Below are positions 30,001-36,000 of a DNA stretch of 64,000 nucleotides, piece by piece. The stretch is from the NCBI GenBank assembly GCA_039804105.1, contig JBDRZU010000002.1, positions 224,001 through 288,000 of the forward strand. The letters run 5' to 3'. A program made the position numbers. The stretch is from a candidate division WOR-3 bacterium. GTDB taxonomy: Bacteria > Hydrothermota > 32-111. Position 1 is the stretch's first letter. Every line of letters begins with the position of its first letter.

Positions 30001-33000
30001 TTTTTCACAAAAATAGTTTTATCAACAGGATTTTCTGAATATACATTATTTTTAAAATACACTCCATACACCCAAACAAAAAAAGTAAAAGTAAAAGAAA
30101 AAGAAATATTGAAAAGTGAAGACAAAAAAATCTATTTCGACAGAATAGGAAGAAAAGTTTTCAAAAATGATTTGAAAACTTTTGATATCTATTTCACTGA
30201 AGATAAAAAGATATTAATTCTAAAAAAATAGTTTGACTTTATCATATCAATTTTTATAATTTTTTTTATGCGTATAATCATTTTAACATTTTTTTTACTT
30301 TTGTGTGAAAATCTATCTGGCTATACTATTAAAAAAAGTGATCTCGTACTTTATTATGATACTCTGACATTACAACAAAAAGTTTCTCAACTTTTCATAG
30401 TTTACAGAAACGACCTTAACTTCACAGAAAATACACCCGGTGGAATTATCCCATCAAGAAACCTTTTAAAGAAGATATATTACAAAAAAATTCCCGTCAA
30501 CTCTTTAACAAAAAACTTTAAAGTTCCGCCTTTGATATGCATTGATCAGGAAGGGGGAAAGGTTGATAGATTATCATTCATAGAAAAAACTCCCTCTTTA
30601 AATTCGATTTTTCATGATTATGAAAGAAGAGAAATAATTATAAAAAATATGGTTTTAAACCAAAAAAGGTTAGGTATAAATTTAAATCTCTCACCTGTTC
30701 TTGATCTATCCTATCAACAAAAATCGATGATGCGAAGAACAGACCGAACGATTGTATCAACTGTTGATTCTATAAAAGAGTTCGTTGATTTATATATCTC
30801 TCTTCACAAAAGTATGAAAATATTAAACTGTGTAAAACATTTTCCAGGCTATGGAGAAACTTTCGATAATTCAGATGTAGTTATACCAAAATTTAAAGGT
30901 GATAAAGAACTGTTTGAGAAAAATATAAATCTATTTTACCATTTTTTTGATAAGGTTTCATTTGTGATGCTTTCAAACATAGTTTATCCATTTCTCGATA
31001 CTCTACCTGCTATAAGATCACAAAAAATAGTAGAACTTGTTCGAGATAAGAATAAAGATATTGTTATAATTGCTGATGATATAGCATCAAAATCAAACAA
31101 AAATCCATTTTTAGTTTTAAAAGAATCTTTTAAAAGTGGAGTCGATATGTTTATTCTCATGAACGATACTCTTTTTGAATATATGGTAGATTCACTTTCT
31201 TTTTGGATCTCAAATGGAGAGATTTCCAAAAAAGATATCGACGAAAAACTTTTCAGAATAATGTTGAAAAAAGAATATCTTTTTAATTTTATAAAAAACC
31301 GAAGTTAGATTCCAATTATCGAAACATTGTTTACAAACTGGGTCATTATATCTCTTGCTTTTTTTAACTCTTCAGGTTTGTAAGGTTTAATCATTTTAAA
31401 ATCATCATTTAAAGTTTTAATGTTTCTGAACTGCTGGATTATATATTTTTTTGCACCTGCGATTAAAACACCGATCTCCCTTATATCTTCGAGTGTTACA
31501 AGTTGTGGAACCATTGTAGTTCTGAATTCATAATCAATTTTGGAATTTAATAAGATATCAACAGAATTTTTTATCCTGTCAAAATCAAGGTTTATTCCAG
31601 AAGCAATTATATATTTTGAAGGAGATGTTTTTATATCCATAGCAACATAATCGACAAGATTTTTTGTTAAAATTTCTTCAAGAATTTTTGGAGTGTATCC
31701 GTTTGTATCAACCTTTATTGGAAGTTCAAACCTTTCCTTCAAATTTGCTATGAAATCAATAACATCTTTACTCATTAAAGGTTCACCACCTGTTATACTG
31801 ATACCTTCAATAAAATTTTTTCTCTCATCAAGAAGAGAAAACAATTTATTTTCATCTATCGTCTGTATGATATCAAAATCTTTTACAAGTTCAGGATTAT
31901 GACAGAAAGGGCACCTGAAATTACATCCAGCAAGAAAAATTGTGGATGAAACTTTCTCAGGGAAATCGAGTGTCGTTATCCCTTGAAACCCTTTTACAGT
32001 GACCATTTAAATAATTTTTAAAGTTTGAACTCTTTTCTATCTTTGAACTCTTCCCTTTTACCTTCATTCCAGTTGTTAACTGGTCTAAAATAACCAACTA
32101 TTCTACTGTAAATTTCTGTTGGAATCACTTTTACTTTTTTAACATCTTTTTCTTCACCTTTTAAAACAACTTTTACCTCTTCCATTTACTCTCCTTTTTC
32201 AACATATATTTCAACACCAAATTTTTCAAGTTCTTCAGTCGTATGATCATAGGGACAATAGTTGTGTTCTCCGGGAATATATCCATGAACAGGACATATA
32301 GAAAATGTTGGGGTTATGGTAAAATATGGTAGATGGAAATTTTCCGCTATCTTTTTCACAAGTTTTTTACAAGCATTTGAAGAATATATTCTTTCCCCAA
32401 TGAAACCATGCAACACTGTTCCGCCTGTATACTGACACTGAAGTTCATCCTGCAATTTTAATGCTTCAAAAAGATCATCTGTAAAACCAACTGGAAGTTG
32501 TGTAGAATTTGTATAATATGGAATATCTTTTCCTGCTGTTATGATATCCGGAAAACGTTTTTTGTCCTCTTTTGCAAGTCGGTATGATGTTCCCTCAGCC
32601 GGCGACGCTTCAAGGTTATACAGGTTTCCAGTTTCATCTGTAAATTTTTCAAGTTTTTCTCTCATAAATTTTAGAGTTTCAAGTGCAAACTCTCTTCCTT
32701 TACTTTGACCAATATTTTCTCCCATAAGCATTAAACATGCTTCATTCATTCCAACAAGTCCTATTGTAGAAAAATGGTTTGCCCAATATTTACCATTTGC
32801 TTTTTTTACCTCTTCAAGATAAACTTTAGAATATGGATAAAGATTTTCTTCTGTGAACTTTTCAAGAACTTTTCTTTTAATTTCAAGAGATTCTTTTGCT
32901 ATTTCCATCATCTTTTCAAGTTTTGAAAAAAATTCCACTTTATTTTTACTGTTATAAGCTATCCTTGGAATGTTTATCGTTACAACACCTACAGAACCAG

Positions 33001-36000
33001 TCATCGGATTTGCACCAAAAAGACCTCCACTTCTTTTTGGATGTTTTTCCTGTTTATGTTCCTGCACAAAATTCTTGTTTGAAAGTAGATTCAATTGAAT
33101 CTTTTCACTTCTTCTTTTTAACTCTCTGTTATCCAATCTCAACCTACAGCACATGCTCCTTGCATCTGATGGATCCATATCGGAATTAATGAAATTACTG
33201 AAATATGGTATACCATATTTTGCTGTCATCTCCCATATTTTTTCAAGATTTGGATTGTCCCAATCAAAATTTTTTGTTATGTTGTATGTTGGAATTGGAA
33301 ATGTAAAAATTCTACCCTTTGCGTCTCCTTCCATCATAACTTCGGCAAACGCTTTGTTGAACATATCCATTTCTTGCTGAAATTCTTTATATGTTTCATT
33401 CATCCTATTTCCACCGATTATCACTCTCTCATCCTTTAATGTTTCAGGACAGACAAGATCCATGGTTACATTTGTGAACGGTGTTTGAAATCCAACTCTT
33501 GTTGGAACATTAACATTGAAAACAAACTCCTGCATCGCCTGTTTTACTTCTTCATATGTTAATTCATCATACCTTATAAATGGAGCAAGATATGTATCAA
33601 AATTTGAAAATGCCTGTGCTCCCGCTGCCTCTCCCTGTAATGTATAAAAAAAGTTAACTATCTGTCCAAGAGCGGTTCTGAAATGTTTTGCTGGTTTTGA
33701 TTCTATTTTGCCTGAAACACCTCCTAAACCTTTAAGCAAAAGTAGTTCAAGATCCCATCCACAACAGTAAACTGAAAGCATTCCAAGATCATGTATATGT
33801 AAATCTCCCTCTCTGTGAGCATTTGCAACCTCTTTTGGATAAATTTTTTCAAGCCAATATGATGCCGAAATCGTTGAAGAGATATGGTTGTTAAGCCCCT
33901 GCAGAGAGTATGACATATTTGAATTTTCATTAACCCTCCAATCGATCCTTTCTATATACTCATCCATCAAATCGATACTATATTTCATCAACTCTTTACT
34001 CTTTCTTATCTGATTATGCTGCTCTCTGTAAAGTATATACGCTTTTGCGGTTTTAGCGTGTCCCGCTTCGATAAGCATCTTCTCAACAAGATCCTGCACA
34101 TTCTCGACTGTTGGAATCCTTCCATCTTTATACAGAACTTCAAGAACAGCAACTATCTGATTCGTTATCTTTTTGGCTGGCTCAATATCTGTTCCACCAA
34201 CAGCTTTCACCGCCTTAAAGATCGCTTCAGTTATTTTGTTTTCGTCAAATTTTTCCAGCCTACCATCTCTTTTTCTTATGTATTCAACCTTGGTCACCCA
34301 TTCCTCCATTTTTTTCAAAAAATATTATCACTCACTTGAAAAATGTCAATAGACCCCACAAAATATAGTGGGGTCTTATTTTGTAAAATACAATATGTTG
34401 AAAAATAACAGAACTTAAGGTTTTAATTATTTTACAAACATTTCAGCAACCTTAAGAGGTATTTCATAGCTCAAAGAATCAACCAATGTAAGTTCTGAAA
34501 AATCAACAAGATACAATTTTCCAACATTTGTTGAAACAACCACTTTTCCTTTGAAATATTCAATATCTGAAGGTGATGGAATTTCAAGAGTTTTTATCAG
34601 GTTTAAATCCGTATCAAGAATGTATAACTTATTGAATATATCAGTTAAAAATAGTTTATCCTCAATAACTTTAATTTTTCCAAGAAAATTATCAAACTCT
34701 AAAGAATCAACATCAACACCATCTTTTACCTTTTTGATTTTACCTTTTATATCGTTATAGTTACCAACAAGAGAGACATAGATTTGATCGTTCTCATCAA
34801 GATCAAGGTAGGAAGGATTTGAACCTTTTGCAAGATCGGTTTCAACATTTTGAAAATCTTCAGATATTTTATAGATATGCCCATTCAAAGAGGTATTGTT
34901 CGATCCCACATATAAAAATCCATCTCTATAAACAACCTCCTGTGGTGCTGTAACTGATAATGAATCAACTATCAAAAAATTTTCTTTTTCTATTTTTAAA
35001 ATAGAATTCGAAAGCCAATCGGTAACAAAAATATAATTTTGATTACCTTCAATGTATGCAGGTGAACTCAAATCTCCCCTTTCGATCTGTGAAATTTTGT
35101 TTCCAGAAAGATCAAACTTTTCGATCGTTGGTGTTCCACCAAAACCTGAATTTGTAATGTAAATGTTTTTATCGTCAACATATATGTCTGTAGGTGCTGA
35201 ACCCGTTATCAAAAGTGGGGTTATTTGAAGCTGAAACAGAGAATCCACCGTATAAACCGATTCCTTTTCCCAATCAAGAATATAGATTGAACTTTCTACT
35301 TTTTCATTTTTAAACAGAGAACAGGAAATACTTAACAACAAAATCAATAAAACAGATAGAACAGCAAAAACTTTTTTCATCATACCTCCATTTTGAAGTT
35401 TAAAGAGAATTTTCTTCCTTCCTTAATATAACCTCTCACACTCTCAATTTTCAAATCGAACGGATTATCAATCGAAAGTGTAACATACAAACTCTTCAAT
35501 CTGTAATCCAAACTCACTTCATCAAAACAAAAATAGGGGGGTAAATATTTTGTGTTTTCATTGTTTAAAAACCTTTTCGATCGATATTCAAAATAAAGAG
35601 AAAAAATTAAATTCTTAAACTCATAACTCAAAGAATAGTTCAAGTTTATAAAAGATGTGTATAAAAGTATCTTGAATCTGTCCAGATACATTGGAGATAT
35701 TGTGAAGACGAGAGAGTTGTTAAAATTCAATATATTTTTGTTGTATTGAAAACCTATGTAAGGATTATAAGTTTTTAAAATGTTTTCTGGAGTATAAATT
35801 CCATTTATGTTTATCCATCTTATAAGGTCCTTGTAAAAGTTGAATCCACCCCAAAATTTTTTATCCTCTTTTGAAAAAGCAAAATGGTATGAATAAAGTT
35901 TTTCGTTTACAAGTTTTTCATTCCCTCGAGTAAAAATATCTCCAGTCCAGTAAAGTTCATTGAATGTCGGCCTTCTGGTTGAGATTTTCAAGGAGTGTGT

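Follow-up and report, generated by a model that had tools for sequence, protein, structure and literature searches.

The class III ribonucleotide reductase (RNR) NrdD of a Hydrothermota bacterium is encoded by two abutting genes, nrdD-L for a large chain and nrdD-S for a 55-residue peptide bearing the glycyl-radical loop. Directly observed are the arrangement of the genes and its conservation, purifying selection on the peptide and the lack of any other detectable RNR; we consider it very probable that the two products form an obligate two-chain glycyl-radical RNR. A preliminary description of this DNA had likewise read the locus as a natural two-chain RNR, a reading that is supported by anatomy, conservation and selection. 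The window analysed here is a stretch of 64,000 nucleotides (assembly GCA_039804105.1, contig JBDRZU010000002.1, positions 224,001 to 288,000), in which all coordinates below are counted. The source of the locus is a hot-spring bacterium.

The radical loop is encoded by a gene of its own

The genes are arranged in the order nrdD-L, nrdD-S and nrdG, all on the minus strand (Table 1). The large chain ends in ..YVEKGE followed by TAA, and the ATG of nrdD-S (32183-32185) is the very next codon in the same frame. Its Shine-Dalgarno (SD) motif is located upstream of this ATG, with the GGAG ending 5 nt from it; the earlier claim of two genes, the second with its own SD sequence, is hence borne out by the sequence. 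The ORF of nrdD-L can be read from a TTG (32186-34318, 710 aa); the GTG start used here is homologous to the starts of its relatives.

Table 1. Features of the split nrdD locus, in window coordinates
Feature	Position	Strand	Remarks
nrdD-L, large class III RNR chain	32186..34297	-	703 aa from GTG 34297; stop TAA 32186-32188
ATP-cone of nrdD-L	34013..34282	-	PF03477, residues 13-102 of the 710-aa reading, E 3e-23
Finger-loop motif M-C-C-R	33143..33154	-	residues 382-385 of the 703-aa chain; sequence SMCCRLRL
Zn-ribbon-like segment CPVH..(9)..CPYDH	32243..32296	-	C668, H671, C681, H685
Shine-Dalgarno AAGGAG of nrdD-S	32191..32196	-	within the final codons of nrdD-L
nrdD-S, 55-aa peptide	32018..32185	-	variable linker (residues 1-22), then docking strand and glycyl-radical loop
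Radical loop YSRIVGYFRP of nrdD-S	32081..32110	-	Gly31 at 32093-32095
nrdG, radical-SAM activase	31305..32006	-	begins 11 nt past nrdD-S; TIGR02495 and PF04055

Both pieces belong to the same family. The Pfam profile NRDD (PF13597) matches nrdD-L at profile positions 1-527 of 562 (E 7e-188) and nrdD-S at positions 533-562 (E 1.3e-9). At E <= 0.01 nrdD-S hits no further Pfam family; in particular PF01228, the glycyl-radical domain of the pyruvate formate-lyase (PFL) type, is not matched. Moreover, nrdD-L scores well above the cut-offs of NF006126 (1065 bits, cut-off 548) and TIGR02487 (545 bits, cut-off 326), and nrdG is assigned to TIGR02495 (NrdG2; E 2.4e-59, 199.9 bits, cut-off 131). The locus shows the NRDD barrel, the finger-loop cysteine motif and the dedicated NrdG of a class III RNR. 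The radical loop, which in this class is part of the barrel polypeptide, is here a separate 55-aa ORF, and neither the profile match and sequence reading nor the alignment with fused relatives reveals a glycine loop in nrdD-L itself.

The finger loop belongs to the MCCR type, one of the two classes MGCR and MCCR defined in the available text of PMC9669993. M382, C383, C384 and R385 are invariant in an alignment of 18 split large chains, and the motif is the presumed thiyl-radical site, as Gly31 of nrdD-S is the presumed site of the glycyl radical. Of the ribbon positions in this alignment, both histidines (H671, H685) are invariant, and the cysteines C668 and C681 reach a conservation of at least 90%. 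The CPVH..CPYDH segment is a putative metal-binding site. The pattern CPxH..CPxC reported earlier for this ribbon holds for the fused relatives, whereas the second knuckle of the split forms reads CPY[D/E/P]H. The fourth ribbon ligand is changed from Cys to His in the split forms, and one lineage (G078) has lost the cysteines of the ribbon. The loop of nrdD-S aligns with the C-terminal ..YSRVVGY.. loop of fused NrdDs. As previously described, the alignment with these relatives places the break directly behind the Zn-ribbon region and ahead of the radical loop; it also reveals extensions at the end of the large chain and at the start of the peptide that are absent from fused NrdD.

The genome comprises 1.81 Mb in 2 contigs and is 85% complete by markers. 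A search with PF02867 gave no match in it, and it has a single NrdD locus; the split NrdD is the only RNR detected, and another could in principle sit in an assembly gap, although there are only 2 contigs. PF02867 was likewise absent from 18 of 18 genomes examined in this class; 13 of these have a completeness of 90% or more, and control genomes were positive. The earlier statement that class I and II enzymes were not found extends to these genomes.

The peptide is predicted to dock onto the large chain

A model of the complex between the large and the small chain scored 0.80 (three runs: 0.82, 0.80 and 0.80), as compared to 0.00 for the best control, with a partner pLDDT of 76 and a contact agreement of at least 96%. 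Of solved complexes, 116 of 157 attain this mark, as do 2 of 215 mismatches. In the model, residues 664-668 of the large chain pair with residues 23-26 of the small chain, and the large tail (693-701) contacts the peptide. Cys383 and Cys384 are located outside the confidently contacting residues, and the model therefore gives no Gly-to-Cys geometry. Since the two modelled chains are halves of a fold already solved as a single chain, the pass may stem from their resemblance to solved one-chain NrdD structures. Among these is 8P23, which we take to be the enzyme of Prevotella copri. Further one-chain structures are 4COI/4U3E (Thermotoga maritima) and 1H78-1H7B (phage T4), the organisms being given in the part of PMC9669993 at hand. 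In a PDB sequence search, the nrdD-S part aligned to no solved chain.

Stand-alone small proteins matching nrdD-S number at least 7990 in public data; the preliminary description had recognised this family, with 164 members, and it is far larger. Some lineages have duplicated peptide genes, and extra copies are found away from nrdD in sulfur-transfer and Fe-S operons (rhodanese/persulfide; Rrf2-NifS-NifU). In addition, all five viral records checked carry the peptide without a body. These dispersed and viral copies would be in line with a peptide that is not the catalytic radical carrier but a regulator, decoy or storage substrate of NrdG, the radical of NrdD-L coming from elsewhere. We consider this very unlikely, given that a glycine loop is missing from NrdD-L and no other radical source is encoded adjacent to the peptide. 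Moreover, the peptide retains all conserved radical-loop residues of fused NrdDs, and the model would place it at the site of the C-terminus of one-chain NrdD.

The split is conserved with varied junctions

We examined 66 NrdD loci including that of the window, of which 36 are split, 29 fused and one cut. The split loci end the large gene with TAA, TAG or TGA, show frame offsets of 0, 1 or 2 and a spacing from -14 to +28 nt, and start the small ORF with ATG, GTG or TTG, each behind an SD motif; in relatives with spacers of 8-28 nt this is GGAGG or AAGGAG. The variation in stops and offsets noted earlier is thus confirmed, as is nrdG as the next gene. In 34 of 36 loci of relatives nrdG comes after the small ORF; contig edges cut off the remaining two. 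The peptide is encoded in a short frame of its own in 43 of 271 genomes of the phylum; the earlier genome counts were correct in kind and too low. Those other genomes of the phylum for which a match is listed have it as the end of a long NrdD frame; the exceptions are one 138-aa frame in a genome whose NrdD is fused and a few fragments cut by contig edges.

The split had been described for families of Hydrothermota, where it is indeed found. It also occurs outside the phylum, namely in Thermodesulfobacterium, Thermodesulfatator, Spirochaetes, Lentisphaerae and Woesearchaeota. The isolates Thermodesulfobacterium hveragerdense DSM 12571, T. thermophilum DSM 1276 and Thermodesulfatator autotrophicus S606 are among its carriers, and the split is therefore no artefact of metagenome-assembled genomes.

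At the protein level, 17 columns are invariant among 21 nrdD-S homologues. For the peptide core, the 20 of 78 pairs with finite dS give a median dN/dS of 0.015, and nrdD-S of the window differs from that of one relative (L032) by six synonymous and no non-synonymous substitutions. nrdD-S is under purifying selection.

The junctions bear on a further reading, according to which ribosomes read through or shift at the junction and produce an ordinary one-chain NrdD. The window and four further members of its genus indeed have the small ORF in frame right behind a single TAA or TAG, and a readthrough product may for that reason be formed in this genus. Among the relatives, however, the three stop codons, the three offsets, overlaps of -1 and -14 nt and a separate SD motif and start codon speak against recoding; the 8-28 nt spacers contain further stops, and in all three genomes of one genus of another family the peptide gene is unlinked, residing on a different contig from nrdD-L. 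With junctions this varied and genes unlinked, no single recoding mechanism fits, and we regard recoding as highly improbable.

We give practically no credence to an error of sequencing or assembly, or to a decaying gene hit by a nonsense mutation. In favour of such readings, the genome was assembled from a metagenome, and one relative (G016, 77% complete) has an additional internal stop in the large gene. Against them, a contig of another sample spans an identical stop/start junction, with 0 indels and with 3 substitutions that all lie outside the stop and start codons. Moreover, the split recurs in the 43 phylum genomes and in isolates of another phylum, the peptide shows the low dN/dS given above, and in 18 of 18 class genomes the split NrdD is the sole RNR detected.

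The history of the split was followed in a tree of large chains (67 rows, a quick method with LG+G4, the truncated L016, L047 and L051 being left out). Split clades of 16 and 19 rows and a fused clade of 13 form an unresolved three-way fork, and the tree requires two changes between split and fused. On this tree, the split may have one origin or more within the phylum. In other phyla the break lies at different points, which suggests that the split arose more than once overall.

Proposed mechanism of a two-chain NrdD

Assembly of the two chains, activation and activity are what we infer for this enzyme, as follows. NrdD-L would contribute the catalytic barrel and its MCCR finger loop, together with the ATP-cone and a Cys2His2-like ribbon; the radical loop would come from NrdD-S. 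NrdD-S would be made by separate translation, coupled via the stop/start junction and the SD sequence inside the end of nrdD-L. It would then dock non-covalently as an added beta-strand beside the strand ahead of the ribbon, and would also pair with the tail at the C-terminus of NrdD-L. NrdG is envisaged to abstract the C-alpha hydrogen of Gly31, and the glycyl radical would generate a thiyl radical on the finger-loop cysteine of the other chain. Nucleotide reduction would then proceed as in one-chain NrdD.

In such an enzyme the peptide could plausibly be exchanged. The idea of a spare part gains comparative support from the unlinked and duplicated peptide genes and from the viral orphans. 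As a tentative extension, to which we would give somewhat less than even chances, NrdD-S may act as a diffusible, replaceable cartridge. Oxygen would cleave it at the radical glycine, after which only the 55-residue peptide would be remade and re-activated by NrdG, while the 700-residue body is reused. Cells would hold spares in the stress-linked rhodanese/persulfide and Rrf2-NifS-NifU operons, and viruses would bring their own copy to keep or seize the anaerobic dNTP supply of the host.

An RNR whose loop is a peptide of 50-60 residues offers a ready system for studying how an activase meets its glycine. It permits tests of whether the radical element is exchanged after oxygen damage and of radical passage between two chains, and experimental access is provided by the cultured Thermodesulfobacterium and Thermodesulfatator strains that have the system. 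For annotation, the split concerns thousands of small ORFs labelled as full reductase or hypothetical protein; truncated NrdD genes may be mistaken for pseudogenes.

Comparison with known systems

To our knowledge, the radical glycine and the active site share one chain in every characterised glycyl-radical enzyme, and the only trans-acting radical proteins we know of are the PFL spare parts GrcA and Y06I. If the cartridge proposal is true, it would be the first such system outside PFL and the first to have a radical domain that comes in trans at all times. Searches of the main text of open-access papers turned up no account of a split NrdD, nor of a spare part for class III.

With one-chain NrdD and NrdG the present system shares the Pfam and NCBIfam families, the ATP-cone, the barrel, the MCCR motif, the radical-loop sequence and an adjacent NrdG. 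In contrast to one-chain NrdD, the radical loop is a separate gene product and the large chain ends behind the ribbon; the second knuckle reads CPYxH instead of CPxC, and both pieces bear new extensions.

A catalytic RNR chain encoded as two adjacent genes is also found in NrdJa/NrdJb of Pseudomonas aeruginosa, a split class II enzyme according to the accessible portion of PMC4520616. NrdJa/NrdJb is B12-dependent and belongs to PF02867, the family absent here, and its split sets off no radical-bearing minipeptide.

The closest functional parallel lies in GrcA/YfiD of E. coli and Y06I of phage T4, described as autonomous glycyl-radical cofactors of PFL in the available parts of PMC13450708 and PMC8683613. 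As far as the text at hand extends, the 2026 review PMC13450708 names formate lyases as the only class of glycyl-radical enzymes with known spare-part proteins, and both sources treat spare parts for other such enzymes as an open question in the field. Common to both systems are a small stand-alone radical-loop protein that acts, or in our case would act, in trans with a large barrel chain, and the existence of viral copies. GrcA, homologous to the C-terminus of PFL, is a spare for the full-length enzyme, whereas the peptide described here is homologous to NrdD. The coexistence with a full-length enzyme that marks GrcA is not seen here, the short-frame copies being found, with few exceptions, in the 43 split-NrdD genomes. 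Unlike the partner of GrcA, the large chain has no radical domain, and the peptide would thus be required from the outset.

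Two abutting genes encode NrdD

The class III ribonucleotide reductase (RNR) NrdD is encoded in the window by two consecutive ORFs, nrdD-L for a large chain and nrdD-S for a 55-aa peptide, MEEVKVVLKGEEKDVKKVKVIPTEIYSRIVGYFRPVNNWNEGKREEFKDRKEFKL. Read from the start codon homologous to those of relatives, the large chain comprises the 703 aa stated in the preliminary description, and, as also stated there, the small ORF begins at the next codon behind its own Shine-Dalgarno sequence, the GGAG of which ends 5 nt upstream of the ATG. The large ORF contains an ATP-cone and matches positions 1-527 of the 562 positions of the Pfam NRDD profile (E 7e-188), and the small ORF covers positions 533-562 (E 1.3e-9). 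The gene for the activase NrdG (TIGR02495, E 2.4e-59) is located 11 nt downstream of the small ORF. A contig of another sample covering 31806-32600 differs by three substitutions without indels, leaving the stop and the start codon unchanged. nrdD-L and nrdD-S are translationally coupled in the window. The finger loop of the large chain, SMCCRL, belongs to the double-cysteine MCCR type mentioned in PMC9669993.

Positions of the features of the nrdD-L/nrdD-S locus in the window
Feature	Position	Strand	Remark
Large ORF	32186-34318	minus	single long frame, 710 aa read from TTG
Homologous start of large ORF	GTG 34297	minus	matches relatives' starts; gives 703 aa
End of large ORF	TAA at 32186-32188	minus	last residues ..FGVEIYVEKGE
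Shine-Dalgarno sequence AAGGAG	32191-32196	minus	within final codons of large gene
Start of small ORF	ATG 32183-32185	minus	three bases directly after TAA, same frame

The genome (1.81 Mb, 2 contigs), which is 85% complete by markers, yielded neither a match to PF02867, the marker domain of class I/II RNRs, nor a second NrdD locus, in agreement with the earlier statement that the split NrdD is the only RNR found there. PF02867 was likewise absent from 18 of 18 genomes of the window's class, 13 of them at least 90% complete, and was detected in control genomes. Thus, the split NrdD is the sole detectable RNR of these 18 genomes.

The split is maintained with varying junctions

A Pfam NRDD scan over 271 Hydrothermota genomes identified NrdD in 184. 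We retrieved 65 loci and read their junctions by script. Together with the window, 36 of the 66 loci are split, 29 are fused, each a single gene for a chain of about 700 aa, and one is cut by a contig end. The junction type varies between lineages: in the window's genus (5 loci) TAA or TAG is followed at once and in frame by ATG, and in the other genera of its family (7 loci) TGA, TAA or TAG is followed by one base and ATG. The sister family has spacers of 8-14 nt with GGAGGA. In more distant families the two ORFs either overlap (-1 and -14 nt) or are separated by 1-28 nt containing AAGGAG, and the small ORF starts with ATG, GTG or TTG. Every stop codon and every frame offset is represented among the split loci, which bears out the claim that the split is kept in relatives with different stops and offsets. 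Given these mixed stops, offsets, overlaps and spacers, neither readthrough, frameshifting nor codon reassignment explains all junctions.

Of 36 loci from relatives, 34 have nrdG after the small ORF, and two are cut by contig ends. When the 271 genomes were searched with A1, a profile built from 21 peptides, the peptide was found in a short frame in 43; in the other genomes among the matches listed it terminates an NrdD frame of roughly 700 or 820 aa, apart from a few fragments truncated by contig ends and a single 138-aa frame in a genome whose NrdD is fused. The two-gene arrangement is real.

The low-quality relative G016 has an additional stop within the large gene. Moreover, three genomes (G028:C8, locus L097:3099-6410; G029:C67; G006:C67) carry an in-frame insertion of ~355 aa in the large NrdD at Pfam NRDD position 157, resulting in frames of 1031-1106 aa. 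The insert is probably an intein, because it weakly matches Intein_splicing (E 6.6e-5, below the cut-off).

The break lies behind the putative zinc ribbon

Fused relatives within the phylum read ..TPTFSICPxHGYxxGEHxxCPxCGxxxE(V/I)YSRVVGY.., so that the radical loop comes immediately after the second zinc knuckle. In the split large chains the corresponding sequence is ..TPTFSICPVHGYIPGEHxxCPY(D/E/P)H(T/S)xEELEKFG.., extended by a tail of 15-60 residues; their peptides consist of a linker followed by (I/V)P(T/C)E(I/V)YSRVVGY(F/Y)RPVxxWNxGKxEEF. The preliminary description had placed the break just after the ribbon. The alignment with fused relatives upholds this position; however, the fourth ligand in the split forms is His, not Cys. 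The putative ligands H671 and H685 occur in all of 18 split large chains, and the conservation of C668 and C681 is at least 90%; the ribbon would presumably bind metal. The split large chain of L048 (G078:C55) lacks the ribbon cysteines (ISPVSGF..DPNPH), and its peptide is intact.

In Lentisphaerae and Thermoguttaceae MAGs (L117, L168, L155, L163, L150) the large chain terminates in ..CPVHGYIPGEHxxCPL(E/A)x, and the peptide, separated by a gap of 41-174 nt, starts with MAKCGxKTE or MSVCGEKTE. In these loci, the peptide thus appears to carry the final cysteine of the ribbon, and a metal site may be shared by both chains. The different break points between phyla suggest independent splits; within Hydrothermota, the large-chain tree needs two changes and is still compatible with a single origin. 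L104, a 752-aa single frame of an uncultured bacterium (genome_contigs), has a barrel followed by a split-type linker (..RKVRAIRTEVYSR..) and may represent the re-fusion of a once-split gene.

The peptide core is conserved and predicted to contact the large chain

In the A1 profile 17 columns are invariant (Met1, E24, Y26, S27, R28, V30, G31, Y32, R34, P35, W39, N40, G42, K43, E46, F47 and R50), and the N-terminal ~20 residues of the 21 peptides vary freely. The median dN/dS of the core is 0.015 (31 codons; finite dS in 20 of 78 pairs), and six synonymous and no non-synonymous changes separate the cores of the window and locus L032.

The complex was folded from alignments of the large chain (18 rows) and the peptide (21 rows). 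It scored 0.80 (runs 0.82, 0.80 and 0.80), the best of three controls 0.00, with a partner pLDDT of 76 and a contact agreement between runs of at least 96%. Of the solved complexes, 116 of 157 attain this mark, as against 2 of 215 mismatched pairs; these counts apply only approximately, since our own alignments were used for the fold. In the model, peptide residues 13-55 would contact the large chain, residues 23-26 would pair with large-chain residues 664-668, the strand preceding the ribbon, and the large-chain tail (693-701) is likewise predicted to touch the peptide. Cys383 and Cys384 are absent from the confident contact list. Because the two chains are the halves of a fold that has been solved as one chain, the pass may reflect memorised one-chain structures and indicates likeness, not binding.

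Peptide genes occur apart from nrdD and beyond the phylum

In all three genomes of one genus the only peptide gene is located on another contig than nrdD-L, preceded by NfeD and SPFH genes and followed by the gene for a zinc-ribbon protein. Another genus has a second copy on a different contig in 13 of 15 genomes, and one of the 13 has a third. A 289-aa gene adjoins six of the 10 second-copy loci fetched, and a 453-aa gene also adjoins five; in the loci L087-L091 and L095 (family f35) the peptide gene is located between the two. In L088, Pfam identified the former as Rhodanese and the latter as metallo-beta-lactamase plus Rhodanese. A Cys-x-Cys tail (..YLSCECEEAAE) is present on five of eight second copies found by motif and absent from the operon copy. 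At L084:4006-4179 (G232:C6) a second copy is part of an operon in the order Rrf2 regulator, Cys-Met PLP enzyme, peptide, NifS-like and NifU-like protein, and its end overlaps the start of the NifS-like gene.

Among the best 80 viral contigs, the peptide is an ORF of its own in 71, and in 66 of these no barrel resembling that of the window's NrdD lies within 4 kb. Five viral records, of which two are estimated to be 100% complete, were searched over their full length, and in all five the sole NRDD match was the C-terminal piece. Stand-alone frames of 112-128 aa with their own Cys-rich ribbon and the radical loop were observed in a Smithellaceae MAG (L169:2797-3132) and at G246:C168:10821-10925, without an NrdD barrel within 3 kb; the latter copy sits amid short phage-like ORFs.

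A profile search of a 90%-identity protein collection (28-109 aa) returned at least 7990 matches among 8000 candidates scored, named 'anaerobic ribonucleoside-triphosphate reductase' or hypothetical protein. A 50%-identity library gave 4883 representatives at E <= 1e-3 and 2243 at E <= 1e-10, some short ones of which may be contig-end fragments; the best 150 all comprise 49-98 aa. Of the best 80 loci on one-genome-per-species contigs, 55 encode the peptide as its own ORF, adjoined by a truncated NrdD in 48 cases, 23 are fused, one is cut and one lacks the motif. The isolates Thermodesulfobacterium hveragerdense DSM 12571, T. thermophilum DSM 1276 and Thermodesulfatator autotrophicus S606 possess a split NrdD and also a PF02867 RNR. 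By label, the split MAGs include Caldimicrobium, Leptospirales/Spirochaetes, Lentisphaerae/Victivallis, Thermoguttaceae, Aminicenantes, Aegiribacteria/Fermentibacteria, Elusimicrobia and Woesearchaeota.

In Spirochaetes/Treponema MAGs (L111, L140, L156, L159, L172, L124, L144) frames of 185-233 aa combine the otherwise stand-alone peptide with a C-terminal CxxC thioredoxin/glutaredoxin-like domain (for L111, a sub-threshold match to PF00462 at E 0.0019); the radical element may thereby be linked to its reductant. Fused NrdDs of 790-840 aa in Firmicutes MAGs (L141, L151) bear a glutaredoxin-like CPNC domain beyond the radical loop.

Discussion

The large chain lacks the glycine loop, and the peptide retains every conserved loop residue. 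We consider an obligate two-chain class III RNR the best explanation, and a very probable one. The unlinked genes, paralogues and viral orphans indicate that the peptide likely acts in trans. A GrcA-like repair part is the less fitting role, because stand-alone copies within the phylum occur almost only in genomes with a loop-less NrdD, which fits a required subunit. Exchange of the peptide after damage by oxygen, or its provision by viruses, would be conceivable.

Searches limited to the open-access literature yielded no account of a split NrdD. A passage of a 2026 review gives known spare-part proteins among glycyl-radical enzymes only for formate lyases (PMC13450708), and a passage of a 2021 paper leaves spare parts for other such enzymes as an open question (PMC8683613). 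The closest known systems are one-chain NrdD/NrdG, the split class II RNR NrdJa/NrdJb, and GrcA/YfiD and T4 Y06I, the stand-alone glycyl-radical cofactors of pyruvate formate-lyase. However, GrcA is a repair part for an intact enzyme, whereas the peptide described here would be the partner of an NrdD without a radical loop.
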